From an uncultured Actinomycetota bacterium (lineage in GTDB: Bacteria; Actinomycetota; Actinomycetes; Jiangellales; Jiangellaceae): DNA of 64,000 nt. The notes beneath the pieces were generated by a model that was not told where the DNA came from, searched no databases, and was given only the letters and a program-made list of their open reading frames with translations. Positions 26,396 through 46,757 of this stretch are shown here, piece after piece (within the stretch, counting starts at the first letter, position 1; each line of letters opens with the position of its first letter). The stretch is from contig CAWCXA010000011.1 in the NCBI GenBank assembly GCA_963799425.1, forward strand, positions 99,263 through 163,262. The letters are read 5' to 3'. The position numbers and the translations under genes were made by a program.

Positions 26396-28196
<1,801 letters not shown>

Positions 28197-28242
28197 TAAT
28201 CTGTATCTTCGACGGGCAGACATGCGGTGTCAAATCACGGAC

Positions 28243-28281
28243 TGTCCACATGCGTACGCGGCGACGGCGCGCCGTCCACAG
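28243..28281 (+). promoter_or_regulatory. composite direct-repeat element TGTCCACATGC-N20-GTCCACAG (copy A, upstream of comEA)
   Basis: Read directly from the sequence as cTGTCCACATGCGtacgcggcgacggcgcgccGTCCACAGtc. It ends 50 nt before the comEA ATG (28332). Identical architecture occurs at 38771 and 45471. Confidence 0.6.
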
Positions 28282-28331
28282 TCTTGGTCAGCACCGTGGG
28301 ACCCGGCGGCCGGCGACCCTAGCGTCGAAAC

Positions 28332-29240
28332 ATGTCCCTCTGGAGCCGGCGTCGGGAGCGGCGCGTCCTGCAGCAGCAGGCGCGGCAACGGCTGGCCGCC
28401 GTGTTACCGCCGCCGAGTGCCGGTTGGGTGCCAAGCGATCCACCTTCCGGGGGTTCGGCCACACCTGAGCCGTCTCGGGGCAGGCATCGCCAGCCGCGGG
28501 CGAGGAGTCACCTCGTCGACCGGCTTCCTGTGCGGCTGCGGGCTTTGCTGGCTCGGCTCGGGGCGGGGCAGGAGTTCGGGCTCGACCGAGGGCACGCCGT
28601 CGTGCTTGTCCTTCTTGCCTGCCTTGGAGTCGGCGTTGCGATGGTCGTCGTCTTGGCCAGCCGTCCCGACGAGATCGAGATCCCGACGCGGACGATGACC
28701 TCGTCGCCGACAGCCACGGGGGAGGCCGGTGCGCCGTTGGCGACCGAGGAGCCGAGCTCGGGCGAAACCCCTGCACCTACCCCTGGTGCGGAGGGGGACG
28801 CCGTCACCGTGCACGTCGCGGGGCAGGTGGCGCAACCGGGGTTGATCCGGCTTCCCGCGGGGTCGCGGGTCGACGATGCGCTGCATGCGGCGGGGGGCGC
28901 ACTCCCCGGTGTCGACCTTTCAGACCTCAACCTGGCCCGCCTGCTCTCCGACGGTGAGCAGGTCGCGGTGGGAATTGAGGGAGCCGCCGATGCCCAGCCG
29001 GGTCGCGGCGCGGCTGACGGCGGAGCCGCGGCGGCGGGGTCGGGCGGCGGTCTCGTCGATCTCAACCACGCGACCCTCGAGGAGCTCGACACGTTGCCAG
29101 GCGTCGGGCCGGTTCTTGCCCAGCGGATCCTCGACTGGCGGTCAGCCAATGGGCAGTTCACGACGGTCGACGAGCTGCAAGAGGTGAGCGGCATCGGCCC
29201 CAAGGTCTTCGCGACGCTGGTCCCGAAGGTTCACGTGTGA
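28332..29240 (+). CDS. comEA: ComEA-family DNA-binding protein (TM + SLBB-like + helix-hairpin-helix)
   Basis: 302 aa. C-terminal HhH VDLNHATLEELDTLPGVGPVLAQRILDWRSANGQFTTVDELQEVSGIGPKVF. Confidence 0.85.
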   Translation: MSLWSRRRERRVLQQQARQRLAAVLPPPSAGWVPSDPPSGGSATPEPSRGRHRQPRARSHLVDRLPVRLRALLARLGAGQEFGLDRGHAVVLVLLACLGVGVAMVVVLASRPDEIEIPTRTMTSSPTATGEAGAPLATEEPSSGETPAPTPGAEGDAVTVHVAGQVAQPGLIRLPAGSRVDDALHAAGGALPGVDLSDLNLARLLSDGEQVAVGIEGAADAQPGRGAADGGAAAAGSGGGLVDLNHATLEELDTLPGVGPVLAQRILDWRSANGQFTTVDELQEVSGIGPKVFATLVPKVHV

Positions 29241-33210: not shown

Positions 33211-33471
33211 TCAGAGGCCGGCGGCCTGCTTGGAGATCGCCGACTTGCGGTTGGCGGCCTGGTTCTGGTGGATGACGCCCTTGGACGCCGCCCTGTCGAG
33301 CTTGCGGCCGGCCTCACGCGCCAGCTCGCGGGCCTTGTCGGCGTCGCCAGTGGCCGCGGCCTCGCGGAACTTGCGGATAGCCGTCTTGAGCGACGACTTG
33401 ACCGCCTTGTTGCGCAGACGAGCCTTCTCGTTGGTGAGAATGCGCTTCTTCTGGGACTTGATGTTCGCCAC
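33211..33471 (-). CDS. rpsT: 30S ribosomal protein S20
   Basis: 86 aa. [35 protein letters not shown].... Confidence 0.95.
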
Positions 33472-33832
33472 GCGTATGCCTTTGGGTTGGTGGGCCTTCG
33501 AGTCGATGGGACAGGTCTGAGAGCGTCAGCCAGTCTCGGGACACGTGGCCGGGGATGACCACGGCGCGGCAAAGACAGACCGTCGTGCGCGCGACCTGGG
33601 CGCACACGCAGTTGTGAACCATACCAAGCAGCGGCGCTCAGGCCGAATCCGGCCGGCGGGAGGCGACCCGTTAGGCGCGACCACTTGTCACCGTCTGGCA
33701 CAATAAACGGTTGAACCCGACGTGCCCGGCCCCTCTCAGCCTGCACGCCGTGTCCATCGAGGCGTCGACCACGGTGTCCCCACCCGCATTCGACGACTCA
33801 CCCGTGCCAATACACAGGAGACTCCACACACC

Positions 33833-34393
33833 GTGGCCGTCAAGATCAAGCTCAAGCGGATGGGCAAGATCCGCACCCCGCAATACCGCATAGTCGTGGC
33901 CGATGCGCGCACCAAGCGTGACGGTCGTGCCATCGAGGAGATCGGGAAATACCACCCGAAGGAGGACCCCTCGTTCATCGAGGTCAACTCCGAGCGCGCG
34001 CAGTACTGGCTGTCCGTCGGCGCCCAGCCGACCGAGCCGGTCGTTGCCATCCTCAAGGTGACCGGCGACTGGCAGAAGTTCAAGGGCATCGAGGGCGCCG
34101 AGGGCACCCTCAAGACCGCCGCGCCGAAGGCCGACAAGCGAGCCGCGTACGACTCCGCCCTCGCCGAGGCTCACGCCGAGCCGCAGGCCGAGGCCACGAC
34201 ACCTCGCAGGTCCAAGAAGGCTGCCGCTCAGCCTGAGCCCAAGCCGGATGCTCCGGTGGCCGATGATCCGGTGGCCGATGCTCCGGTGGCCGATGCTCCG
34301 GTGGTCGATGCTCCGGTGGTCGAGGAGGCCCCCGCGGCCGAGGCTGCGCCGGCGGCCGAGACGGCGGAGACCCCGGCTCAAGACGAGGCCTGA
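33833..34393 (+). CDS. rpsP: 30S ribosomal protein S16 with Ala/Pro/Asp-rich C-terminal extension
   Basis: ORF trimmed to GTG 33833 ([38 protein letters not shown]). AGGAGA RBS upstream. Confidence 0.9.
34247..34321 (+). repeat. 5 x 15-bp in-frame tandem repeat (DAPVA units) in the S16 tail
   Basis: GATGCTCCGGTGGCC and close variants occur head-to-tail five times. Confidence 0.9.
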
Positions 34394-34398
34394 GCGCG

Positions 34399-34635
34399 AT
34401 GCTGGCCGAGGCGCTGGAGCACCTCGTCAAGGGCATTGTCGAGCACCCCGACGAGGTCACCGTACGCAGCCGGGAGCTGCGTCGCGGCCGCGTACTCGAG
34501 GTGCGAGTGCATCCCGACGACCTGGGCAAGGTCATCGGGCGTGCTGGTCGCACGGCCACGGCGCTGCGCACCGTCGTCGGCGCCCTAGCCGGCGACGGCG
34601 TGCGCATCGACTTTGTCGACGTGCGCGAGCGTTGA
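34399..34635 (+). CDS. KH domain RNA-binding protein (YlqC/UPF0109 type)
   Basis: 78 aa. LVKGIVEHPDEVTV...VHPDDLGKVIGRAGRTATALRTVV. It sits in the conserved position between rpsP and rimM. Confidence 0.9.
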   Translation: MLAEALEHLVKGIVEHPDEVTVRSRELRRGRVLEVRVHPDDLGKVIGRAGRTATALRTVVGALAGDGVRIDFVDVRER

Positions 34636-34651
34636 TCATCAGCTGTCCCGG

Positions 34652-34692
34652 ACGGGCCGTGTCGACCGCACACTGCGGTTGACACGGCCCGT
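34652..34692 (+). other. strong stem-loop inside the rpsP operon (between the KH gene and rimM)
   Basis: 12-bp stem ACGGGCCGTGTC / GACACGGCCCGT. Its 17-nt loop itself contains a 5-bp stem, ACCGC/GCGGT. There is no U-tract. It lies 39 nt upstream of the rimM GTG. Confidence 0.5.
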
Positions 34693-34730
34693 ACATATGT
34701 CCACCTTTTGACACTCCTGGAGTCCAGCCA

Positions 34731-35252
34731 GTGCAGTTGACCGTGGGCCGCGTCGGCCGCGTCCAGGGGAACCGCGGCGAGGTTGCCGTCGAGGTGCGTA
34801 CCGACGACCCTGATAGCCGCTTCGCTCCGGGGATGGTGCTTCTCACCGACCCCGAGCAGGTCGGTCCGCTGACCGTGGGGCGGGTCCGCTGGCAGGGCAA
34901 CCGCCTGATCGTCCGGTTCCGCAACGTGCCCGACCGCACCGCGGCCGAGGCGCTGCGCGGGGTGCTGCTGCTCGTCGACGTCGATGACAGCGAGCGACTT
35001 CCCGATCCCGACGAGTTCTACGACCACCAGCTCGTCGGGCTGCATGCGGTGACTAGCCGCGGCGTCGACATCGGCGAGGTCACCGAGGTGCTGCACCTGC
35101 CGGCGCACGAGCTGCTTGCGGTGCGCCGCGAAGACGGCACAGAGGTGCTGGTCCCGTTCGTGTCGCAGATCGTCAGCGACATCGACCTTGCCGAACGCGT
35201 CGTCACCATCGACCCGCCTGGGGGACTCCTCGAGGCCGAGCCGGAGGCCTGA
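34731..35252 (+). CDS. rimM: ribosome maturation factor RimM
   Basis: 173 aa. LTVGRVGRVQGNRGEVAVEVRTDDP... and the PRC-barrel C-terminus ...EVLVPFVSQIVSDIDLAERVVTIDPPGG. Confidence 0.9.
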   Translation: MQLTVGRVGRVQGNRGEVAVEVRTDDPDSRFAPGMVLLTDPEQVGPLTVGRVRWQGNRLIVRFRNVPDRTAAEALRGVLLLVDVDDSERLPDPDEFYDHQLVGLHAVTSRGVDIGEVTEVLHLPAHELLAVRREDGTEVLVPFVSQIVSDIDLAERVVTIDPPGGLLEAEPEA

Positions 35253-35255
35253 GCC

Positions 35256-36068
35256 ATGCGCGTCGATGTCGTCACGATTTTCCCGGACTACATGGCGCCT
35301 CTTGGGTTGTCCCTGGTCGGCAAGGCTCGCGAGGCGGGTCTTGTCGACGTCCGCGTGCATGACCTCCGTGCCTGGACAACGGACCGTCACCGCACCGTGG
35401 ACGACACTCCGTACGGTGGCGGCGCCGGCATGGTCATGAAGCCCGGACCGTGGGGGGTCGCGCTCACGGAGATCACGGCCGACCCACCCGAAGACGCCTC
35501 GCCAAGGCTCATCGTGCCGTCGCCGTCGGGTCGACCCTTCACCCAACAGACCGCGCAGGAGCTCGCGGGGGAACCGTGGCTGGTCTTTGCCTGCGGCCGG
35601 TACGAAGGGATCGACGCGCGCGTCTCCGAGTGGGCCGCCGATCGCATGCGGGTCGACGAGGTCTCTCTCGGCGACTACGTCCTCAACGGCGGCGAGGTCG
35701 CGGTGCTCGCGATCGTCGAGGCGGTGGCGCGGCTGCTGCCAGGCTTCATGGGCAATCCGGAGTCGATCGTCGAGGAGAGCCACGCCGCCGGGACCGGCGG
35801 GTTGCTCGAATATCCGGTCTACACCAAGCCGCCCACCTGGGATGGTCGCGACGTTCCGGAGGTGCTGCTTTCCGGGCACCACGGCCGGGTGGCCCGCTGG
35901 CGTCGTGACCAGGCGTTGGCCCGCACCGCGGCGCGCCGCCCCGACCTCATCACCGCGCTGGACCCCGACACGCTCAACGCCAAGGACCGCAGCGTGCTCC
36001 GCGAGCTCGGCTGGCTGCCTGGCGACGACGGACGGTTTCGTCCGGCAGGTCCGGCTGTGGCAAACTAG
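35256..36068 (+). CDS. trmD: tRNA (guanine37-N1)-methyltransferase
   Basis: 270 aa. [12 protein letters not shown]..., [25 protein letters not shown] and [11 protein letters not shown]. Confidence 0.95.
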
Positions 36069-36191
36069 GTCGCTGTTGCCCACCACCCGCGCACCTGCCA
36101 CAGGGGGATCGCCGCGATAACGGGCAAACGTGATGTCCATACCTCACTGCCCGTCCGTGACCTGTGGCACGTTCGAGAAAGCGACCCCAGC

Positions 36192-36542
36192 ATGAACGCC
36201 CTGACCGCGCTCGACACCGCCAGCCTCCGCGAGGATGTGCCAGCGTTCCGCGCTGGCGACACGCTGAAGGTCCACGTCAAGGTCGTCGAGGGCAGCCGCT
36301 CCCGCGTCCAGATCTTCCAGGGTGTCGTGATCCGCCGCCAGGGTGCCGGCGTTCGCGAGACCTTCACCGTTCGCAAGATCAGCTTTGGCGTCGGGGTGGA
36401 GCGCACCTTCCCGGTGCACACGCCGATCATCGACAAGATCGAGCTCGTCACCCGCGGCGACGTGCGTCGTGCCAAGCTCTACTACCTGCGCAATCTGCGC
36501 GGCAAGGCCGCCAAGATCCGCGAGAAGCGCGACAACGGCTGA
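36192..36542 (+). CDS. rplS: 50S ribosomal protein L19
   Basis: 116 aa. [58 protein letters not shown]. Confidence 0.95.
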
Positions 36543-36556
36543 GCGCCACAAGCTTC

Positions 36557-36607
36557 GACGCAACGACACCCTGTGTCGAACATATCGACGCGGGGTGTCG
36601 TTGCGTC
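36557..36607 (+). terminator. stem-loop downstream of rplS
   Basis: 15-bp stem GACGCAACGACACCC / GGGTGTCGTTGCGTC with a 21-nt loop (inner GTCGA/TCGAC pairing). It begins 15 nt after the rplS stop. There is no U-tract. Confidence 0.55.
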
Positions 36608-36693
36608 TGTAGGGCCGCGCCTGGCCGGGCCGCCCGGTGGGCAAGGTAGCGTCAGGGCCGGTCGTCGGCGAGATCTCAGCATGAGGAGTCCAC

Positions 36694-37422
36694 GTGGTGG
36701 AGGCGTCCGAGCGGGACGGCGAGCGACAAGAACCTGAGTCGCCGCACCCCGACGGCGGGCGCGAGAAGCGCAACCACGGGATGTCGCTGCTCAAGGAGAC
36801 CGCCCTTGTGGTGGCGCTGGCGCTCGTCATCGCAACCTTGGTGCGGGTCTTTCTCGTGCAGGCCTTCCTGATCCCGTCGGGCTCGATGGAGGACACCCTC
36901 CAGATCAGTGACCGTGTGCTCGTCAGCAAGCTCACCACCCGATTCGGCGACGTCGAGCGCGGCGATGTCGTGGTGTTCTCTGACCCCGACGGCTGGCTCG
37001 GCCCGCAGGTGGACGTCGGCCGCGACGGTCTCGCCGGCACGATCCAAGATGCGCTCGAGTTCGTGGGCGTCCTGCCCAACAGCGCCGAGGGACATCTCAT
37101 CAAGCGGGTGATCGGTGTCGGCGGTGACCATGTGGTCTGTTGCGACGATGAGGGTCGGGTGACCGTCAACGACCATCCGCTCGACGAGTCGTCGTACCTT
37201 TTCCCGGGAGACGTGCCGTCGACCTCGCCGTTCGACGTCGACGTCCCCGAGGGTCAGCTGTGGGTGATGGGCGACCATCGCTCCGACTCGGGTGACTCGC
37301 GGGCCAATGGCACGGTGCCCGAACGGCTGGTCACCGGCCGCGCCTTTGCCATCGTCTGGCCGCTCTCCCGGTGGTCCGGGCTCGGCCGACCGGGGACGTT
37401 CGAGGGTGTCCCCGACCCGTGA
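36694..37422 (+). CDS. lepB: signal peptidase I
   Basis: 242 aa with a GTG start. IPSGSMEDTL (catalytic Ser), GDVVVF, KRVIGVGGD and GDHRSDSGDSR. Confidence 0.9.
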   Translation: MVEASERDGERQEPESPHPDGGREKRNHGMSLLKETALVVALALVIATLVRVFLVQAFLIPSGSMEDTLQISDRVLVSKLTTRFGDVERGDVVVFSDPDGWLGPQVDVGRDGLAGTIQDALEFVGVLPNSAEGHLIKRVIGVGGDHVVCCDDEGRVTVNDHPLDESSYLFPGDVPSTSPFDVDVPEGQLWVMGDHRSDSGDSRANGTVPERLVTGRAFAIVWPLSRWSGLGRPGTFEGVPDP

Positions 37423-37480
37423 CCGGCCGTCGCGTGGCGCCCTGTCGCTCGTACGCACGTCGTCGCTAGGCTCGGCCACG

Positions 37481-38329
37481 ATGGGGCAGAACACATTGCG
37501 GGCACGCTCGCCCAGCGTCGTCGGCGCACCGGGGAAGCCGCCCAGCCTACGGTTCGAGAAGGCACTCCTGCGCCAGGGGCACACGCTCGTCGCCGCGTGC
37601 GACGAGGTTGGCCGCGGCGCGCTGAGTGGGCCTGCCACGGTCGGCGTGGTGCTGGTCGATGTCAGCGTCCAACGACTGCTGCCCGGGCTGCGTGACAGCA
37701 AGCTGCTCCTGCCGGAGGCCCGCGAGCGGCTTGCCCCGCGGATCCGGCGCTGGGCACTTGCGACCGCAGTGGGTCACGCCAGCGCCTGCGAGGTCGATGC
37801 GATGGGCATTCTGCCGGCCCTGCGACTTGCCGGCCGCCGAGCACTAGGCGCGCTGCCCGCTCGCCCCGACGTGATCATCCTCGACGGCAACCACGACTAC
37901 CTGACACCGCCGGCCCAGCGAGGCTTGTTCGATCTCGAGCCCGTACTCGATGACGAAGATGTACCACCCGTCGTGACCAAGATCAAAGCCGATCTGACCT
38001 GCGCATCTGTTGCAGCGGCAAGCGTCCTTGCCAAGACTGAGCGTGACCGGCTCATGGTCCGGCTTGCAGATATTTATCCCGGTTTCGCATGGGAGATAAA
38101 CAAGGGATACGCAACGCCTGAGCACATGGCGGCAATCCGTCGGCTCGGACCATGCGAGCAGCACCGCCGGACCTGGCGGCTGCCGCTGCGCGAGCTGGCC
38201 GCCCTCGAAGAAGCGGCGGCGGCTGTCCTTGGCAGGCACGGCTTCGACCCTGAGGAGGCGGGCATGACGAGCCTCGAGGCGCTCCTGGGTGACAATGGAG
38301 CCGTCGAGGCCGAGCGTCAGCCGGCCTGA
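37481..38329 (+). CDS. rnhB: ribonuclease HII
   Basis: ORF trimmed to ATG 37481. ACDEVGRGALSGPATVGVV, DSKLL, ASVLAKTERDRLM and GYATPEH. Confidence 0.9.
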   Translation: MGQNTLRARSPSVVGAPGKPPSLRFEKALLRQGHTLVAACDEVGRGALSGPATVGVVLVDVSVQRLLPGLRDSKLLLPEARERLAPRIRRWALATAVGHASACEVDAMGILPALRLAGRRALGALPARPDVIILDGNHDYLTPPAQRGLFDLEPVLDDEDVPPVVTKIKADLTCASVAAASVLAKTERDRLMVRLADIYPGFAWEINKGYATPEHMAAIRRLGPCEQHRRTWRLPLRELAALEEAAAAVLGRHGFDPEEAGMTSLEALLGDNGAVEAERQPA

Positions 38330-38381
38330 CCCGGCGGCGTCAGACGTCGTCGGGGGGCACGTCGAGAAGGGCAGGCAGGGC

Positions 38382-38702
38382 GTGAGCGCCGAGGACCTCG
38401 AGAAGTACGAGACCGAGATGGAGCTCTCGCTCTACAAGGAGTACCGCGACGTGGTGGGCCTTTTCTCGTACGTTGTCGAGACTGAGCGGCGGTTCTATCT
38501 GACCAACAACGTCGACCTGCAGGTCCGCAGTGACGGTGGCGAGGTCTACTTCGAGGTGACGATGAGCGACGCGTGGGTCTGGGACATGTATCGCCCGGCG
38601 CGCTTCGTCAAGAACGTGAAGGTCGTGACGTTCAAGGACGTCAACGTAGAGGAGCTCGCCAAGAGCGACTTGGAGATCAAGTCGCCGCCGTTCGGATCCT
38701 GA
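38382..38702 (+). CDS. DUF2469 domain-containing protein
   Basis: ORF trimmed to GTG 38382. SAEDLEKYETEMELSLYKEYRDVVGLFSYVVETERRFYLTN.... This is the conserved actinobacterial neighbour of rnhB. Confidence 0.8.
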   Translation: MSAEDLEKYETEMELSLYKEYRDVVGLFSYVVETERRFYLTNNVDLQVRSDGGEVYFEVTMSDAWVWDMYRPARFVKNVKVVTFKDVNVEELAKSDLEIKSPPFGS

Positions 38703-38770
38703 TCCGGTTAGGCCCTGGTTCGGCGGCACGCCGCCGGGCGACCGCGTTCGTCCGATTCGACGCGGCCGGT

Positions 38771-38809
38771 TGTCCACATGCGCTGTGAGGGCCCCTCGGC
38801 TGTCCACAG
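38771..38809 (+). promoter_or_regulatory. composite direct-repeat element TGTCCACATGC-N20-GTCCACAG (copy B, upstream of yraN-comM-dprA)
   Basis: Read directly as tTGTCCACATGCGctgtgagggcccctcggcTGTCCACAGtt. It ends 39-63 nt before the candidate yraN starts (38849, 38858, 38873). Confidence 0.6.
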
Positions 38810-38848
38810 TTGCGCGGTCTGATCTTCTCGCCATCCTTCTGCGCCGCG

Positions 38849-39232
38849 ATGGTGGTCGTGGAGGTGGTGCACGTGCGGGCCAAGGACGGGGTCGGATCCT
38901 ACGGCGAGAGGGTGGCCGAGCGGCACCTGATCGAGGCCGGGTTCACGGTGATCGACCGCAACTGGCGCTGTGACGTCGGGGAGGTCGATCTCGTGGCCTT
39001 CGACGGCGAGGACCTGGTGATCTGCGAGGTCAAGACACGCTCGTCTGATGCCTTTGGCGCGCCGCTCGAGGCGGTCACGCCCGTCAAGCTCCGCCGCTTG
39101 TGGCTGCTGGCCATGAGATACGCCGCCGCGCATGACGTTGCCTATCGACAGCTGCGAGTAGACGCCGTTGCCGTGCTCAGGCAGCGCAAGGGTGCGGCAG
39201 TCGTCGAGCACATCCGGGGGATCGGCTCATGA
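38849..39232 (+). CDS. YraN-family (UPF0102) endonuclease-like protein
   Basis: GERVAERHLIEAGFTVIDRNWRCDVGEVDLVAFDGEDLVICEVKTR. The start is uncertain (ATG 38849, GTG 38858 or 38873). The stop overlaps the comM start. Confidence 0.8.
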   Translation: MVVVEVVHVRAKDGVGSYGERVAERHLIEAGFTVIDRNWRCDVGEVDLVAFDGEDLVICEVKTRSSDAFGAPLEAVTPVKLRRLWLLAMRYAAAHDVAYRQLRVDAVAVLRQRKGAAVVEHIRGIGS

Positions 39233-40776
39233 CCGTGGCCCGCACGCACTGTGTCGCATTGCTCGGCATCGAAGGGCGCATGGTCGAGGTCGAGGCAGAT
39301 ATTGCCAATGGGATTCCAGGGTTCGTTCTCGTGGGGTTGCCCGACGCCACGCTCAACGAAGCGCGGGATCGGGTGCGATCGGCACTCGTCAACTCAGGCG
39401 AGGGATGGCCGCAGCGGCGGCGCACCGTGAGCCTCTCACCGGCCGACCTGCCCAAGAAGGGCAGTCACTTCGACCTGGCGATCGCGGTTGCCATTGCGGC
39501 CGCCGCCGGCACGGTGCCGCCGTCGGCGCTCGATGGCATGGTCTTCCTCGGCGAGCTGGGTCTCGACGGGCGAGCGAGGTCTGTTCCTGGCGTGTTGCCC
39601 GCCGTTCTGGCGTCGTCAAAGCGCGGCTTCACTCAGGTGGTTGTGCCCGAGGCCAATGCGGCCGAAGCCACGCTTCTGCCGGAGATGGCTGTGCTCGGGA
39701 TCCGGTCGCTTCGTCAGTTGCTAGCAGTGCTCCGTGGCGACCTGGTGCCGGACGAGCCGTCCGTTCCGACCGAGGAGGTCGTCTCCGAATCACCCCTGCC
39801 GCGGCTCTCGCTCGACATGGCCGACGTCGTGGGTCAGGCAACGGCACGGACGGCCGCAGAGGTGGCGGCCGCTGGGATGCACCACGTGATGATGATCGGG
39901 CCACCCGGATCGGGGAAGACGATGATCGCCGAGCGGCTGCCCGGCCTCCTGCCCGACCTCGATGCCGAGGAGGCGCTCGAGGTGACGGCAGTGCACTCGC
40001 TGGCCGGACTGTTGCACCCAGGGCAGCCGCTGGTGACGACGCCTCCATTCGCCGACCCGCACCACACCGCTTCCGTGGCCGCGATGGTTGGTGGTGGTTC
40101 GGGGGTCGCGCGCCCAGGTGCCGTCAGCCAGGCACATCGAGGAGTCCTGTTCATGGATGAGGCGCCGCAGTTCGGCGTTCGAGTGATCGATGCGCTGCGG
40201 GAGCCGCTGGAGAAAGGCGAGGTGCTCATGGCGCGCAGCCAGCGATCGATCCGGTTCCCGGCTCGCTTCCTGCTTGCGATGGCAGCCAATCCGTGTCCGT
40301 GTGGCTACTTCGGCCAACTGGACCACCCCTGTCAGTGTCTGCCCGACGCCGTGCGGCGCTACCGTCAGCGCATTTCCGGCCCGATCCGGGACCGCATCGA
40401 CCTCTGGGTCAAGGTCCCTTCCGTCAGAAGGTCTGCCCTCCTCGCAGGGCTCGGCCAGTCGGAGTCCAGCGTGACGGTTGCGGCGCGCGTTGCGGAGGCC
40501 CGGCTCCGGCAGCGACGGCGTTACACCGGGCTGCCGTGGCGGTGCAACGGCGACGTGCCAGGACCTGAGTTCCGCCGTCGTTGGCCGCTTTCCGCCGATG
40601 TTCTGGCCCCCGTCGAGGAAGCGCTACGCCTCGGGGAGCTCACCGCCCGCGGCGCCCATCGATCCATCCGGGTGGCCTGGACGGCGGCCGACCTGGCCGG
40701 GCGTAACCGACCGATCCTCGACGACACGGCGTTTGCTGTCGCCCAGCACCTCGAGACTCGGGCGGCCGCCGCATGA
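39229..40776 (+). CDS. comM: YifB/ComM-family Mg-chelatase-like AAA ATPase
   Basis: 515 aa. Lon-like N-domain, Walker A MIGPPGSGKTM, VLFMDEAPQF and a Cys cluster NPCPCGY...CQC. Confidence 0.9.
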   Translation: MTVARTHCVALLGIEGRMVEVEADIANGIPGFVLVGLPDATLNEARDRVRSALVNSGEGWPQRRRTVSLSPADLPKKGSHFDLAIAVAIAAAAGTVPPSALDGMVFLGELGLDGRARSVPGVLPAVLASSKRGFTQVVVPEANAAEATLLPEMAVLGIRSLRQLLAVLRGDLVPDEPSVPTEEVVSESPLPRLSLDMADVVGQATARTAAEVAAAGMHHVMMIGPPGSGKTMIAERLPGLLPDLDAEEALEVTAVHSLAGLLHPGQPLVTTPPFADPHHTASVAAMVGGGSGVARPGAVSQAHRGVLFMDEAPQFGVRVIDALREPLEKGEVLMARSQRSIRFPARFLLAMAANPCPCGYFGQLDHPCQCLPDAVRRYRQRISGPIRDRIDLWVKVPSVRRSALLAGLGQSESSVTVAARVAEARLRQRRRYTGLPWRCNGDVPGPEFRRRWPLSADVLAPVEEALRLGELTARGAHRSIRVAWTAADLAGRNRPILDDTAFAVAQHLETRAAAA

Positions 40777-41957
40777 CCGGGGCGGATCGGCCGGCGAGCT
40801 CACCCGACCTGCTCGAGGGGCAGGATGAGAGGCACGCACGCGCGCTCCTTACAGCGATCTGGGAGCCGGGAGACATCCCCTTCGGGCAGCGGGTGGCCGA
40901 GATCGGTGCCGTGCGCGTCGTCGCAGAGCTGCGCGACGGTTCACTGCCTCGGACCTCGACGGCTCGCCAAGGACTTGCCGCCGATCGCGCCCGGGTGATC
41001 AACGTCGCCGAGCTGCTCGATGCCGCCGCGCGCCGGGGCATCCGGTTCGTCATCCCCGGCGATGCCGAGTGGCCCGACTCCCTGGGCGTGCTCGACATGG
41101 TGAGCCTCGACAACATGGGCGGCCAGCCATACGGACTGTGGCTGCGTGGCCCGCTCGACCTGGCGGAGACATTGCGGCGATCGGTGTCAGTTGTGGGCGC
41201 GCGCGCCGCAAGTGCTTACGGAGAGCACGTCGCCACCGACGTGGCCGCCGGGTTGGCGGACCGGGGGGTGGCTGTCATGTCGGGGGCCGCCTACGGCATC
41301 GACTCGGCAGCTCATCGGGGCGCCCTCGCGGTCGGCGGGGCCACGATCGCGGTGCTGGCCTGCGGGGTCGACGTGATCTACCCGCGAGGTAACGCGAGTC
41401 TGCTAGGACGGGTCGCCGACGAGGGCCTCATCGTGAGCGAGGCGGCACCGGGTGCGACGCCCACGCGCCCGCGATTCCTGATTCGCAACCGCATCATTGC
41501 CGCGGCCACGCCTGGCACGGTCGTCGTGGAGGCAACTCCCCGGTCTGGCGCGCTAAACACGGCCAACTGGGCAGACAAATGCTCCCGCCAGGTCATGGGC
41601 GTCCCGGGCCCGGTGACATCGTCACTGTCGGCGGGTGTGCACGAGCGAATACGAAGCAGCGCCACGTTGGTGACCAGCAGCGCCGAGATCCTCGAGCTGA
41701 TCGGGCCCATTGGGACCGATACGGCGCCCGTGCCGAGGGGCCCGGAGCGTCCACGCGATGGTTTGCCGTCCGCGGCCGTCACCGTGCTCGAAGCAATGCC
41801 CAGCCGAGGTTGCGTCACGGTCGACGAGCTGTGCGCGACCACGCCGATCGCGCCGCGCGAGTGCATCGCGGCGCTGGGCTTGCTCATGGCTCGTGGGTTG
41901 GTGCAGTCCTCGCCCACCGGCTGGTCGCTCACCCGGCTGGCACGCACCGGAGGTTGA
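40773..41957 (+). CDS. dprA: DNA-processing protein DprA (Smf)
   Basis: 394 aa. VVGARAASAYGEHVA...MSGAAYGIDSAAHRGAL...RFLIRNRIIAA...GALNTA. Confidence 0.9.
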   Translation: MTGADRPASSPDLLEGQDERHARALLTAIWEPGDIPFGQRVAEIGAVRVVAELRDGSLPRTSTARQGLAADRARVINVAELLDAAARRGIRFVIPGDAEWPDSLGVLDMVSLDNMGGQPYGLWLRGPLDLAETLRRSVSVVGARAASAYGEHVATDVAAGLADRGVAVMSGAAYGIDSAAHRGALAVGGATIAVLACGVDVIYPRGNASLLGRVADEGLIVSEAAPGATPTRPRFLIRNRIIAAATPGTVVVEATPRSGALNTANWADKCSRQVMGVPGPVTSSLSAGVHERIRSSATLVTSSAEILELIGPIGTDTAPVPRGPERPRDGLPSAAVTVLEAMPSRGCVTVDELCATTPIAPRECIAALGLLMARGLVQSSPTGWSLTRLARTGG

Positions 41958-42127
41958 GCGCTCGTGGCGGGTGCACACCCGTGTGTTGCGGATCAAGACG
42001 TGCCGAGCGCCGTGACTGTTGCGAGGTCATGCCGTGCGCAGCCTCTGGATCCTCAAGCGGCAAACGACACGGCGCCAAGGGGGTGGCGGTTCTTGACCGT
42101 CCGCGCCACGGCGGCAACGGTGATCAT

Positions 42128-43090
42128 GTGAGCCGTGAGCCGAGCGAGCTGCCTGCATCGCTGCAACATGTCCTCGACGCATTCGTCCGGCACTTGGCGC
42201 AAGAACGCGATCGGTCGCCGCATACGCTCCGGGCCTACCGCGGAGACATCGCTTCGCTGCTCGACCACATGGTCCGGCTGCGGCATGACGATGTCTCCGC
42301 GCTCGACATCAGCGTTCTGCGGTCGTGGTTGGCTCGCCTTGCCTCCGAAGGTAGATCGCGAAGCACGCTCTCGCGACGGGCAGCGGCCGCCCGAGTCTTC
42401 TCCGCGTGGGGACACCGCACGGGCCTGCTCAGCACTGACCCGGGCGGTCAGCTCGCAACTCCCCGGCGAAGCAGGCCGCTTCCGGCTGTGCTCGAGGCAC
42501 GACAGGCACGTGACGTCCTACAAACTGCGGCTGAGGGCGCAGCCGCGGCGCCAGACACGGCATCTTTGCCGGCGGCCGCATTGGCGGTGGCAGTGCGAGA
42601 CAGTGCACTGCTCGAGCTGCTCTATGCCTCGGGCATCCGGGTCGGTGAGCTCGTGGGGCTAGACGTGGACGACATCGATCGTGGGCGTCGCGTGGTGCGC
42701 GTCCTGGGCAAGGGGCGCAAGGAGCGGACAGTGCCGTACGGCGCGCCGGCTGCGGCCGCGCTGGAGACGTGGCTGCGCAGCGGCCGGCCGCTGCTTGCGA
42801 GGGAAGCCAGCGGTCCGGCTCTCTTTCTCGGCCTACGTGGCCGACGCTTGGACCCGCGCACCGTCCGCCGTGTCGTGCACGCAGCAATGCAAGCGCTCGA
42901 CGGTGTGCCCGACCTAGGGCCGCACGGCTTGCGTCACTCGGCCGCGACCCACCTGCTCGAAGGTGGTGCCGACTTGCGAAGCGTCCAAGAGATGCTCGGG
43001 CATGCTTCGTTGGCGACCACCCAGATCTATACACACGTGTCTGTCGAGCGGCTGCGGCGCGCCTATGCGCAAGCCCACCCGCGTGCCTGA
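42128..43090 (+). CDS. xerC: tyrosine recombinase XerC
   Basis: ORF trimmed to GTG 42128. SPHTLRAYRGDI, ELLYASGIRVGELVGLD, GKGRKERTVP, HGLRHSAATHLLEGGADLR and LGHASLATTQIYTHV. Confidence 0.9.
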   Translation: MSREPSELPASLQHVLDAFVRHLAQERDRSPHTLRAYRGDIASLLDHMVRLRHDDVSALDISVLRSWLARLASEGRSRSTLSRRAAAARVFSAWGHRTGLLSTDPGGQLATPRRSRPLPAVLEARQARDVLQTAAEGAAAAPDTASLPAAALAVAVRDSALLELLYASGIRVGELVGLDVDDIDRGRRVVRVLGKGRKERTVPYGAPAAAALETWLRSGRPLLAREASGPALFLGLRGRRLDPRTVRRVVHAAMQALDGVPDLGPHGLRHSAATHLLEGGADLRSVQEMLGHASLATTQIYTHVSVERLRRAYAQAHPRA

Positions 43091-43111
43091 GCGAGCCACG
43101 CCACCGAGCGG

Positions 43112-44611
43112 TCATCGCTCAACGGAGGCGTCGTCGGGCACCCCCGCGACGACCGCGGCGATGTTGTGCTGCGACTCGGTGCCCGCGTCGAGGTAACTCG
43201 AGTGCCCGGTGATGCGCTCACGTTCCGCGGTACCGTCCGTCTCGAGCCGGATCGCGCCGAATGCTTCCTCACCCGGGTCGGCACCGAAGCGGCTCAGCAT
43301 CGCAATCCAGTCGCGGTCGGCCTCCGCGACATAGACCGCACCGTCGTCGAGCCGGACGTCGTCGGCTTCGTCAACGCCGATGCCGGGTGACCCGAGCAGG
43401 ACCAGGTCATCGACCCCGTGATGGGCGACGCCCAACGTCTGCCCGGCGACCAAGGATCCGTACGAGTGCCCGATCACGGTGACGTGCGAGTCGCGCCCTG
43501 CCACCAGCGCCCGCTGCGCGAGGCCGTCCAGCGTGCCGCGCAAGAGGGTCGATCCGGCTCGTGCAGACTTCGTGAACGCGGCTTCCAGACCCTGCGGGGT
43601 TTTGTAGCCCAACCAGGCGATCACCGCGACCGGCCCCGACGTCATTCTTGTCGCTGTCCGCTGCAGCGCCTCAGCCTTGCCGACGAGGGAGTCCAGGTCG
43701 GCCGAGACGGTCGTCGACATGCCCGGCACCAGCAGCGCGACATGTCGGGCCGTCTCGGGATTGCCGACGGACACGACGGCGTGGCCGCGCGCCGGATCGA
43801 ACGCCACCAGCAACCGATCCGGGTGGCCCGTCACCTGCGACCCCACCCGCTCGAGCAGCTCGAGCCGATCAGCCAACGCGATCAGGTGCTGAAGGGTCTC
43901 TCTCATGCCCGGCTGCGCCGCGGATCGCAGCTCGGCGAGCGCCTGCGAACGGGACTCACGCAGGAGGCGTCGGTTGGCCCGATCTCGAACTGTTGCCGGC
44001 AGACCGTCCAGCGTGCCGAGCCAGCTGGGAGCGTCACGCCGAAGGTCTTGGCGACGGGAAGGCGGCAGTGCCGCCCACCACTCCGCCACCTGGCCAGCCG
44101 CGCGGACGCCGCCGAGTGGCCGCGACATCGCGATGGGACAACCGGCAACGACTTCGCTCGGCGGCCACGTCGTCGACCAGCGCGGCACATCGGCGACGAG
44201 GACTCGGTTCAATGCCTGCAGCCGATCGACTAGTGCGATAACCCCTGTCGCGACGACTCGCTCCGCATCGTTGGCGAGCTCGTCTGCGGCACCCGCCGGG
44301 AACACCGGCCCACCGGCGGAGTCCCGAGCGACCTGCGCCAGCTCGCGAGCTCGATCGAGCTGTTGGCCGCCAGCTCGGACGACCGCGGCAACGCGTCGTG
44401 ACTCGACCTCGACCGCACGAACCGCGTCGTGCAGTCGGGCCAGGGGCCACGCCGCTGCGTCGGCCGCGGCTCCAGCCCAGCCCTGCGTGAGCGTCGAGAT
44501 GGCGATGCGGAGCAGGGCGACAAGATCCGCCAGGCGGTCGGCTTCGGTGCCTAGTAGCCGAGCGGCGTTGTGCAGCTGCTCGGGCGGCCCGAGGCCGAGG
44601 GCGCGACTCAT
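43112..44611 (-). CDS. alpha/beta hydrolase (DUF1023-like) with N-terminal WXG100-like helical domain
   Basis: 499 aa. The N-terminus is a helix-turn-helix with a W-x-G motif (TLTQGWAGAAADAA). The C-terminal hydrolase has the nucleophile elbow VIGHSYGS. Confidence 0.75.
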   Translation of the reverse strand: MSRALGLGPPEQLHNAARLLGTEADRLADLVALLRIAISTLTQGWAGAAADAAAWPLARLHDAVRAVEVESRRVAAVVRAGGQQLDRARELAQVARDSAGGPVFPAGAADELANDAERVVATGVIALVDRLQALNRVLVADVPRWSTTWPPSEVVAGCPIAMSRPLGGVRAAGQVAEWWAALPPSRRQDLRRDAPSWLGTLDGLPATVRDRANRRLLRESRSQALAELRSAAQPGMRETLQHLIALADRLELLERVGSQVTGHPDRLLVAFDPARGHAVVSVGNPETARHVALLVPGMSTTVSADLDSLVGKAEALQRTATRMTSGPVAVIAWLGYKTPQGLEAAFTKSARAGSTLLRGTLDGLAQRALVAGRDSHVTVIGHSYGSLVAGQTLGVAHHGVDDLVLLGSPGIGVDEADDVRLDDGAVYVAEADRDWIAMLSRFGADPGEEAFGAIRLETDGTAERERITGHSSYLDAGTESQHNIAAVVAGVPDDASVER

Positions 44612-44874
44612 CTCGTTGCGGCTCGCCGATCGGCGGATTCGTAGCCGTCCGCAGCCCAGTCGAGCCGAGCACTCAGAGAGACGATGCGGAGCACCAGCCG
44701 GGTGCCGACGTCGTCCACGTCAGCTCCGGTGATGTGCGCGCCAAGGCGCGGCAGCGCGTCCACGATGAGTGCGAGCGCGCGTTCCGGCCGAGGCTCGCCG
44801 ATCCGGTCGGTGCCCTGGCGAAGCCGGTGTGCCACGGCCCGCAGCAGTGCCGGGTCGGCCGAGAACCCATTCAC
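44608..44874 (-). CDS. small helical protein (88 aa), possibly ESX/EspC-like secretion-associated
   Basis: GTG 44874 preceded by GGAGG. VNGFSADPALLRAVAHRLRQGTDRI.... The start overlaps the M23 stop (GTGA) and the stop overlaps the hydrolase start (ATGA). The family assignment is weak. Confidence 0.5.
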   Translation of the reverse strand: MNGFSADPALLRAVAHRLRQGTDRIGEPRPERALALIVDALPRLGAHITGADVDDVGTRLVLRIVSLSARLDWAADGYESADRRAATR

Positions 44875-45419
44875 CGCGACCTCCGCCCGAGCACTGCTCC
44901 CTGGATTGGCAGCAGTCGCACCCGGAGGTGCCCGAAGAGCAGTCGCGGATCGAGGTAGAGCGACCCTCGCCGCAAGCCGAAATGCAGGCAGGCGGCCGGC
45001 GCGCAGTGACCGCCACGATCTTCGATCGTGCCGATGACGGTCGCGACCGTGACAAGGTCGCCTCGGCCGACCTGGGCAGCCACGGGCTCGTACGTGGTGG
45101 TCAGCGGCCCGTGGCTGATGGACACGACGCCCCGTCCGGCGACCACGCCCGCGAACCGCACAACGCCGGTGCCCGCCGCGCGCACCGGGGTGCCGACCGG
45201 GGACTGCAGGTCGAGTCCGCGGTGACCGGACAGCCAGGGCAGCGGTGGTGGCGCGAAGTCCCGAACCACATCCGGCGGACTCGTGGGCCACATCCAGCCG
45301 GCGGCCGACGCCGGCTGAGTCACCCGGATCGCCGCGCTTGGCATCGCCGGCAGCACGGCCGTGACGAGCGCGAGGGCAACGAGCCCCAGTGTTCTCCGGG
45401 CGGTTAGGGACGATCTCAT
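44871..45419 (-). CDS. secreted M23-family metallopeptidase
   Basis: Only the last 182 codons of the 809-aa track ORF are used. Signal peptide MRSSLTARRTLGLVALALVTAVL, then HRGLDLQSPVGTPVRAAGTGVV...HCAPAACLHFGLR. Conserved position divergent from rpsB. Confidence 0.85.
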   Translation of the reverse strand: MRSSLTARRTLGLVALALVTAVLPAMPSAAIRVTQPASAAGWMWPTSPPDVVRDFAPPPLPWLSGHRGLDLQSPVGTPVRAAGTGVVRFAGVVAGRGVVSISHGPLTTTYEPVAAQVGRGDLVTVATVIGTIEDRGGHCAPAACLHFGLRRGSLYLDPRLLFGHLRVRLLPIQGAVLGRRSR

Positions 45420-45470
45420 GCTTTCGAGCGTCCGCCCGGCTTGATCATGAGGACAGTGCTCCGAGTGGCT

Positions 45471-45509
45471 CTGTGGACGTGGGCCGCTGTCGGACGCGGC
45501 ATGTGGACA
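45471..45509 (-). promoter_or_regulatory. composite direct-repeat element TGTCCACATGC-N20-GTCCACAG (copy C, upstream of the M23 peptidase operon)
   Basis: The minus strand reads cTGTCCACATGCCgcgtccgacagcggcccacGTCCACAGag. It ends 51 nt before the M23 ATG (45419). Confidence 0.6.
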
Positions 45510-45755
45510 GGCCGCCCACCGGCCCGTTGGACCCCTGCCCGCGTACTCCCGTACACTCAGGGGGCGACCCGTGCACCATGGGTCGACTTCGCACGCCCTG
45601 GGCCAGTTCGGTCCGCACCCGCGTGCCCCAACGGTCCCCGGCGCCAGCCGGGGCGGGGTTCGTACGAGGGCGTCAGGCGCGGCGGCCGACCGGTCGTCGC
45701 GAGGAACCGAGTGCGTCGGCCCCATGGGTCGGCGCGGAGGAGGTAGCGCACGGCT

Positions 45756-46757
45756 ATGGCCGTCGTCACCATGAAGCAGCTGCTCGAGAGCGGCGTGCAC
45801 TTCGGGCACCAGACCCGCCGTTGGAACCCGAAGATGAAGCGCTTCATCTTCACCGAGCGCAACGGCATCTACATCATCGACCTGCAGCAGTCGCTGTCCT
45901 ACATCGACCGCGCCTTCGAGTTCATCAAGGAGACTGTGGCCCACGGCGGCTCGGTCCTCTTCGTGGGCACCAAGAAGCAGGCGCAGGAGGCGGTCCGCGA
46001 GCAGGCGACCCGCGTCGGCATGCCCTACGTCACCGAGCGCTGGCTCGGCGGCATGCTCACCAACTTCCAGACCGTCCACAAGCGTCTCCAGCGGCTCAAG
46101 GAGCTCGAGGAGATGAACTTCGACGACGTTGCCGGCTCCGGGTTCACCAAGAAGGAGCTGCTCCAGCGCCGCCGCGAGAAGGAGAAGCTGGAGAAGACGC
46201 TGGGCGGCATCCGCGACATGCAGCGCGTGCCGAGCGCCGTCTGGGTGGTCGACACCAAGAAGGAGCACCTGGCCATCAACGAGGCGCGCAAGCTGGGCAT
46301 CCCGGTTGTCGCGATCCTCGACACCAACTGCGACCCCGACGAGGTCGACTACCCGATCCCGGGCAACGACGACGCCATTCGCGCCGTCACGCTGCTGACG
46401 CGGGTTGTCGCTGACGGTGTCGCCGAGGGTCTCATCGCCCGTGCCGGCCGTGGCCAGGCCGACGAGAAGCCGGCCGAGGGTGACCTCGCCACCGACGAGC
46501 CGCTGGCCGAGTGGGAGCAGGAGCTCCTTGGCGGCAGGGCCGCTGAGGCTCCCGCCGCCGAGGCTCCCGCCGCCGAGGCTGCGACCGCCGAGTCTGCGAC
46601 CGAGGACGCCGAGATCACGTCCGGGGCCGAGACTGAGAAGGTTGCCGACCTCGACAGCGAGACCGTCGACCAGGACGTGGCCGAGACTGTCGCCGAAGAC
46701 GTGGCAGCGGCCACCGCGCCAGCCGAGCCGGACAACGCAGCAGGTGAGCAGGCCTGA
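45756..46757 (+). CDS. rpsB: 30S ribosomal protein S2 with acidic Ala/Glu-rich C-terminal extension
   Basis: 333 aa. [43 protein letters not shown]. Confidence 0.95.

Follow-up and report, generated by a model that had tools for sequence, protein, structure and literature searches.

A paired DnaA-box-like element very probably shared by an M23 peptidase gene and DNA-uptake genes in Actinomycetota

The DNA analysed here (the window) is a stretch of 64,000 nucleotides (nt) from an uncultured bacterium of the Actinomycetota family Jiangellaceae. Upstream of a gene encoding an M23 peptidase (hereafter M23) it carries a short element composed of two direct boxes (copy C), which is also present in the window upstream of comEA-comEC (copy A) and upstream of yraN-comM-dprA (copy B). 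The element is very probably a shared regulatory site that links M23 to the genes of DNA uptake, and copy C is, on balance, best read as the upstream operator of the M23 promoter and as one site of a cis-element that would serve an entire regulon. As the same element occurs in the same register at comEA-comEC, at yraN-comM-dprA and at regulon genes elsewhere, M23 is proposed to be a core member of a regulon for competence and DNA processing. A first-pass annotation of this DNA had located the element at 45471-45509 on the minus strand, ending 51 nt before the ATG of M23, with copy A ending 50 nt before the ATG of comEA, and these positions were confirmed. Its suggestion that M23 shares control with comEA, comEC and dprA gains support from phylogenetic footprinting. 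The copies and the two boxes of copy C are as follows.

45471-45509, minus strand: copy C, the two-box element TGTCCACATGC-N20-GTCCACAG upstream of M23, exact pattern match
45502-45510, minus strand: distal box C1, the 9-mer CTGTCCACA, which fits the DnaA-box consensus TTGTCCACA; centre at about -87 from the M23 start
45471-45480, minus strand: proximal box C2, ACGTCCACA followed by G; centre at about -57 from the M23 start
28243-28281, plus strand: copy A, upstream of comEA-comEC, exact pattern match
38771-38809, plus strand: copy B, upstream of yraN-comM-dprA, exact match; its distal box is a perfect TTGTCCACA

On the minus strand copy C reads TGTCCACATGCCGCGTCCGACAGCGGCCCACGTCCACAG. The pattern TGTCCACATGC-N20-GTCCACAG has three exact matches in the 64-kb window, compared to 0.02 expected from shuffled sequences, and a relaxed scan of the window returned the three known sites and no others. 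All 19 specified bases are the same in copies A, B and C, and the 20-nt spacers are unrelated. Each copy consists of two direct 10-mers, YYRTCCACA followed by G, that are placed 30 bp apart from start to start in the window; including the 5' flanks the six boxes read CTGTCCACA (three times), TTGTCCACA, CCGTCCACA and ACGTCCACA. At the sites of the window and of close relatives GTCCACAG is invariant (9/9). The heptamer GTCCACA is found 10 times in the window with 9.66 expected, and six of these ten lie inside the three copies; the count being near expectation, the element is not a genome-wide repeat.

The nearest relatives (loci L001-L003) are uncultured Actinomycetota known from metagenome-assembled genomes (MAGs), with M23 proteins that are 78-82% identical. 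In close relatives both boxes are kept upstream of M23 and yraN, the spacer has diverged, and the same two-box element is found in the same orientation and promoter register at M23, yraN-comM-dprA and comEA. The counterpart of copy B is conserved in L001-L006 and in seven loci of the genome scan described below. Nocardioides daedukensis carries two boxes 28 bp apart at both M23 and yraN, and in Paractinoplanes abujensis M23 is preceded by GTTATCCACAGG and yraN by two boxes with a distance of 17 bp.

The genome-wide motif scan that the first-pass annotation had proposed was run with the pattern TGTCCACATG-N21-GTCCACAG on one genome per species for 185,579 species; the source genome lies outside this collection, and in the source organism the size of the regulon refers to the three sites in 64 kb. 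The motif recurs at yraN-comM-dprA, comEA-comEC and M23. The scan gave 45 matches, 41 of them in Actinomycetota, mostly in Dermatophilaceae or Intrasporangiaceae and further in Jiangellaceae, Geodermatophilaceae, Paractinoplanes and an Ilumatobacteraceae MAG. Downstream of the matches are yraN-comM-dprA (7), an SSB paralogue (5), M23 (4), recA (3), comEA-comEC (2-3), a small SSB-like protein (2-3), a CpaE-like gene followed by the TadA/CpaF ATPase of a Tad pilus locus (2), DUF222(-HNH) proteins (3-4), a DUF4192 protein (1), an AbiEi-like protein (1-2) and other or unknown genes (6). Apart from M23, this gene set corresponds to that of a classical competence regulon.

A second scan, in which the M23 alignment was used against metagenomes, provided 80 loci with 47-60% identity. 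Where enough upstream sequence was available, forward TCCACA boxes are present in 46 of 57 M23 loci and the reverse complement in three. At least two boxes occur in 29 of the metagenomic M23 loci, with a spacing of 17-19 bp in 15 and of 27-30 bp in 12, and the box is directly followed by G in 64 of 75 cases. Anchoring on CACA together with the promoter geometry resulted in 46 sites on the M23 strand vs 2 on the control strand. In the profile of these 46 sites, position 1 is T in 27 and C in 13, position 2 is T in 25 and C in 17, position 3 is G in 32, A in 8 and C in 5, position 4 is T throughout (46/46), position 5 is C in 44 and position 10 is G in 39, positions 6-9 being the CACA anchor. 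When both strands of L053-L135 (83 loci) were searched for strong boxes with promoter geometry, all 52 such boxes preceded M23 (48), yraN (2) or comEA (2). Five independent comEA loci (L045, L050, L051, L134 and L135) have the same layout as copy A.

Individual sites hold between 1 and 4 boxes. Four direct boxes are present at comEA in an Actinomycetales MAG (L050, 2445-2530), where they are built from a unit of 24 bp that is repeated upstream of the standard pair. In Nocardioides daedukensis (L006, 11666-16490) an island between xerC and dprA contains a leaderless DUF222-HNH gene and three paralogues of a DUF6318 lipoprotein, with one box per gene and a -10-like hexamer 38-39 nt behind the box (TACGCT at two of the DUF6318 paralogues and TAAAAT at the HNH gene).

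The boxes are set in a fixed position relative to a core promoter. In the window the corresponding hexamers are as follows.

45427-45432, minus strand: -10-like hexamer GACGCT at M23, 38 nt after the proximal box and 7 nt before the ATG
45450-45455, minus strand: putative, weak -35-like hexamer TGTCCT, 15 nt after the proximal box
28320-28325, plus strand: -10-like hexamer TAGCGT at comEA, 6 nt before the ATG at 28332
38848-38853, plus strand: -10-like hexamer GATGGT at yraN (copy B)

Among the 42 sites of genome scan and window, a -10-like hexamer nAnnnT follows the proximal box at 38 nt in 23, at 39 nt in seven and at 37 nt in two (together 32/42), with 0-3 sites at each other offset. The metagenomic M23 sites (n=62) show the same preference, the hexamer being located at 38, 39 and 37 nt in 27, 16 and 5 sites, respectively, and in 48 of the 62 the hexamer is followed by ATG or GTG 5-8 nt later, mostly 6-7 nt. 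At comEA, five independent loci have TAGCGT or TACGGT as hexamer, with the start codon following after 6 nt. The -35 region is loosely conserved, with TGG in 26-28 of 42 sites. A scan of 45300-45800 with sigma-70 and terminator consensus sequences gave no match, which indicates that the promoters here are non-consensus.

As the start codon follows the -10-like hexamer by 6-7 nt, the mRNAs of M23 and of other regulon genes are predicted to be leaderless. Relative to the transcription start placed in this way, the proximal box would span about -60 to -52 (centre about -56) and the centre of the distal box would be at about -86. This layout is typical of a class-I activator-dependent promoter, and activation from upstream of the -35 region is rather likely. 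In such a mechanism a DNA-binding protein would occupy both boxes on one helical face and the bound protein would recruit RNA polymerase. The M23 protein, in turn, could plausibly open or remodel the peptidoglycan for the uptake machinery, or it could release DNA.

Several points weigh against the reading of copy C as an operator of a competence regulon. All support for it is sequence comparison, and repression or looping are further possible functions of sites upstream of a -35. Among the scan matches, some adjoin genes that have no obvious link to DNA uptake (PdxS, an epimerase). The two genes that follow M23 in the window, encoding a protein of 88 amino acids (aa) and a WXG-like/hydrolase protein, are found downstream of it in the window lineage only and are not conserved members of the regulon; the conserved M23 operon of the first-pass annotation is thus reduced to M23 itself, which is a conserved member. 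Finally, DnaA should bind the boxes at least in vitro, so that a separate factor is not required.

The last point concerns the factor that reads the element. By every sequence criterion the boxes are consensus DnaA boxes, an identity on which the first-pass annotation did not remark. The consensus YYRTCCACA equals the actinobacterial DnaA box TTGTCCACA, and the E. coli boxes R1 and R4 are likewise followed by G. Distal boxes are a perfect TTGTCCACA in 24 of 42 sites, and the 5' flanks are pyrimidines. Position 3 varies between G, A and C while T4 and CACA are fixed, which mirrors the degeneracy of DnaA boxes. With a weight matrix for M. tuberculosis DnaA the boxes score 13.6-15.0, the six of the window 13.6-14.8 (box C1 14.2), and thereby lie near the top of a scale with a maximum of about 15.2. 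The motif is unchanged over several orders, as expected for the binding site of a highly conserved essential protein such as DnaA. According to published work, DnaA of M. tuberculosis and of S. coelicolor has TTGTCCACA as its high-affinity box, and DnaA is known to regulate genes of DNA repair and replication. It is therefore possible, if less likely than a dedicated factor, that DnaA itself binds the paired boxes and activates or represses the uptake, DNA-processing and M23 genes. Taken further, DnaA acting through paired boxes at -56/-86 could tentatively be proposed as master switch of a natural-competence regulon that extends over the phylum Actinomycetota and would comprise comEA/EC, comM, dprA, SSB paralogues, recA, Tad pili and the M23 wall hydrolase.

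We nevertheless lean towards a dedicated regulator that reads a DnaA-box-like decamer, because of the near-invariant G at position 10 and the spacing of 17-19 or 27-30 bp. In this comparison the origins of regulon-bearing species were represented by the rpmH-dnaA and oriC regions of mycobacteria, for which DnaA binding is documented both in vitro and in vivo. G10 is present in 39 of 46 proximal boxes of the regulon vs 7 of 31 good boxes at the mycobacterial oriC and dnaA promoter, where the base after the box is C in 10, A in 9, G in 7 and T in 5. Position 5 is C in 44 of 46 regulon boxes and is variable at the mycobacterial oriC. The double box of the mycobacterial dnaA promoter has 12 bp from start to start, in contrast to the wider spacing of the element; in the rpmH-dnaA region of M. 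tuberculosis (L136, about 2385-2410, minus strand) this double DnaA box reads CTGTCCACAtggCTATCCACA, and an equivalent 12-bp double box is found in a Mycobacterium locus with a DnaA of the M. marseillense type (L137). E. coli DnaA prefers in vivo boxes that are 2-3 bp apart, a gap that agrees with the 12-bp double box and not with the element. No site at M23, yraN or comEA appears in the IDAP-seq data of M. tuberculosis or the chromatin immunoprecipitation sequencing (ChIP-seq) data of M. smegmatis, mycobacteria not having been checked for boxes at these genes. In some lineages both boxes have been changed together to TCCCCAG. Upstream of M23 in L093 and L128 (also in L080 and L084) both boxes are TCCCCAG or TGCACA instead of TCCACAG, and this paired change hints that the specificity of the factor shifted along with them. 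An oriC-like cluster of boxes was searched for in the fetched loci and none was found. As a close variant, a dedicated competence factor may mimic the specificity of DnaA and compete with DnaA at the sites. Factors other than a dedicated protein or DnaA are, taken together, improbable.

One candidate for the dedicated regulator is a small excisionase-family HTH_17 protein of the Mlut_14660 type, which would bind the direct repeats head to tail. Mlut_14660 is a small, probably essential HTH_17 gene adjoining the SAF/TadZ operon in Micrococcus luteus. In a published screen in this organism mutations clustered in Mlut_14660 and its 5' untranslated region, and one missense change alone reproduced the up-regulation of the comEA/EC promoter; the authors state that binding is still to be shown. 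BldC-family proteins were reported to form head-to-tail multimers on direct repeats of variable number, which is in line with the direct repeats of the element, one to four in number, and with its presence at Tad-locus genes. However, the BldC site AATTNNNNC is AT-rich and contiguous, and the boxes of the element are GC-rich and separated by 8-21 bp, for which reason a BldC-type direct-repeat operator was rejected as identity of the element. No HTH_17 gene was found in the window or beside those Tad-locus sites that could be read. A protein of this type is an unlikely choice, and a less likely one than DnaA.

The target of copy C could also be the ribosomal gene rpsB, which is divergent from M23, and the first-pass annotation had named this as the finding that would speak against its own claim. 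The boxes of the window lie at about -58 and about -88 from the predicted rpsB start, as symmetric as relative to M23, and the distal box of L054 and L059 directly adjoins the -10 of rpsB. However, the proximal box and the conserved rpsB leader are separated by anything from 62 to 217 nt in 22 loci, and this distance differs even among the closest relatives (window 115, L002 145, L003 182, L001 208), while the distance to the -10 of M23 is constant at 38-39 nt. A spacing that is fixed to M23 and variable to rpsB assigns the element to M23. The boxes are kept at M23 where rpsB is not adjacent (L023, L033, L004/L005), and they are oriented towards M23 (46 forward vs 3 reverse). That the element serves rpsB and not M23 is, accordingly, very unlikely. 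The rpsB leader itself (window 45552-45596, plus strand) consists of a -10 TACACT (45552-45557), a hairpin CGACCC/GGGTCG (45565-45585) and an invariant tail (T)GACTTCGCACG; this layout is common to at least 25 loci of diverse Actinobacteria, with compensatory changes in four of five stem pairs. The leader has no match to an Rfam family and may be an S2 autoregulatory leader.

Next to comEA, a GntR/HutC regulator (27402-28223) is encoded divergently, which could bind the GT-N2-AC cores of the boxes. With a start codon only 20 nt away from box A1, the gene must have a promoter that overlaps the element, and TGTccACA resembles the GT..AC core of GntR-type sites. But the boxes are direct repeats and not a palindrome, and operators of the HutC type are palindromic. 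The adjacency of the GntR gene to comEA exists in the window lineage only (window, L045), other comEA loci having degV-plsY or unrelated neighbours, and the regulon spans orders that lack this arrangement. Since the adjacency is not conserved, the neighbour was ruled out as regulator, and its role here is highly improbable. In the window lineage, and only there, the GntR/HutC regulator and an NAD-dependent epimerase occupy 26396-28223 (minus strand) between degV and comEA. Given the 20 nt between its start codon and box A1, the factor that binds the element probably affects the GntR gene too. Beyond GntR, no candidate regulator was found among the genes of the window.

That the repeats are not regulatory at all but due to chance, a mobile or repetitive extragenic palindromic (REP)-like element, a DNA-uptake sequence or an RNA motif is scarcely credible, even though they are short repeats in GC-rich DNA and some scan matches adjoin repeated gene families (DUF222), as only 0.02 copies are expected in the window, the spacers are not conserved, the heptamer is about as frequent as expected, strand and promoter register are strict, Rfam has no match and the boxes lie upstream of the presumed transcription start. 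The Rfam search of the whole window returned no family at the gathering threshold, and around the element a permissive threshold gave nothing but noise. A DNA uptake sequence (USS/DUS) was ruled out by the count of GTCCACA in the window (10 vs 9.66 expected).

The promoter recognised by PafBC (RecA-NDp) was rejected as well, since its motif is not present at M23, comEA or yraN and differs from the element in sequence and position. This motif, tTGTCRgtg-N8-TAnnnT, is located 8 nt upstream of the -10. At recA (L012, L034, L044) and DUF222 genes (L025, L031, L040) the core promoter downstream of the boxes resembles the mycobacterial RecA-independent DNA-damage promoter (TGTCGGKG-N8-TAGSRT) and we take it to be RecA-NDp-like; the boxes at these genes would then sit upstream of a PafBC-type promoter.

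The genes at the three sites were identified with Pfam and NCBIfam searches and are listed below.

44871-45419, minus strand: M23 peptidase gene, 182 aa, signal-peptide-like N-terminus, Peptidase_M23 with E = 2e-13, ATG at 45419
44608-44874, minus strand: open reading frame (ORF) of 88 aa with a 4-nt overlap with M23, no Pfam or NCBIfam family
43112-44611, minus strand: protein of 499 aa with a WXG100-like N-terminus and Abhydrolase_8 (E = 2e-35)
28332-29240, plus strand: comEA, Pfam SLBB/HHH_3
29237-32146, plus strand: comEC, Pfam Competence and Lactamase_B
38849-39232, plus strand: yraN (in relatives the start is at the GTG 38873), Pfam UPF0102 and NCBIfam YraN
39229-40776, plus strand: comM, Pfam Mg_chelatase
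40773-41957, plus strand: dprA, Pfam DNA_processg_A

The 4-nt overlaps among the M23, 88-aa and 499-aa ORFs fit a single operon. The 88-aa ORF follows M23 in the relatives L001 and L002 only, and the WXG100 matches of the 499-aa protein fall under the curated cut-offs. The M23 protein belongs to a subfamily with an invariant C144-L145-H146 in place of the canonical H-x-H, which also conserves H-x3-D and a second cysteine pair, and some members of this subfamily are labelled by NCBI as 'murein hydrolase activator EnvC'; the protein may hence be an enzyme or an activator. Look-ups of the exact sequences of the M23 protein of the window and of one Kribbella ComEA gave no record. The database call of ComEA in the window is 199 aa long (P0121) and that of a relative 235 aa. 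The 302-aa comEA ORF of the window begins 6 nt past the conserved TAGCGT and its N-terminus aligns with that of the relative from residue 1, and the annotated ComEA probably starts too far downstream. In the window lineage (window 33211-45419) the block comEA-comEC-rpsT is only about 6 kb away from the block rpsP...yraN-comM-dprA-xerC-M23-rpsB, which brings all three regulon sites within 17 kb.

That Actinobacteria can undergo natural transformation was recognised decades ago, and the signature described here yields a predicted regulon. The 39-bp element can be used as bait to capture the regulator by DNA affinity, and mutations in the boxes can test the prediction. Many actinomycetes from soil and industry resist genetic manipulation, and in these the competence genes may prove inducible. 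To the genes linked to competence the signature adds M23 and, depending on the taxon, lipoproteins and HNH nucleases, which points to cell-wall remodelling or DNA release within the programme. The identity of the boxes with DnaA boxes also suggests a possible coupling of competence to replication; if the reading in which DnaA itself is the factor holds true, DNA uptake would be wired directly to the replication status or to replication stress.

Compared to known systems, the element shares with DnaA boxes and DnaA-controlled promoters (as in dnaA autoregulation in Streptomyces and mycobacteria and in the DnaA regulons of B. subtilis and E. coli) the 9-mer TTGTCCACA, the pyrimidine 5' flank and the tolerance at position 3. 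It differs from DnaA-controlled promoters in the near-invariant G10, the wider spacing and the strict promoter register, and its genes act in DNA uptake, not in replication. Tested as a DnaA site it thus shows the 9-mer consensus, but neither the close double-box or cluster arrangement nor the freedom beyond the 9-mer. Tested as a GntR/HutC operator it shows neither a palindrome nor a conserved link between regulator and target. Of the features of a competence operator, a motif shared upstream of uptake and DNA-processing genes and a fixed position relative to the core promoter were found. The ComK boxes of B. subtilis are composed of two inverted AT-box half-sites upstream of comEA, comEC, ssbB, recA and pilus-type genes. 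As in the element, the spacing of their half-sites differs between promoters by whole helical turns; their sequence is unrelated, the element consisting of GC-rich direct decamers, and no ComK homologue is implied.

The functional content of the regulon is the same as that of the CRP-S/Sxy sites and of the streptococcal ComX cin-box, whose regulons contain comEA, comEC, comM, dprA, ssb, recA or radA, and pili. Motif sequences, positions and types of factor differ, as CRP with Sxy acts in the former and an alternative sigma factor in the latter. Full-text searches of the literature returned no paper that links the motif, or DnaA boxes, to competence genes and no description of this regulon, and a study of the model organism from January 2026 still describes the regulatory cascade of competence in Actinomycetota as unidentified. 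The competence system of Micrococcus luteus belongs to the same phylum and has the same structural genes, and Tad-locus genes carry the element in two taxa; no cis-element was described for that system. For M23 itself, the closest analogy is pneumococcal fratricide by CbpD/LytA. There a secreted wall hydrolase is co-regulated with the uptake genes, as is predicted for M23 in the Actinomycetota. The pneumococcal enzymes are of the CHAP or amidase type, whereas an M23 metallopeptidase is encoded here, and no immunity gene is evident.

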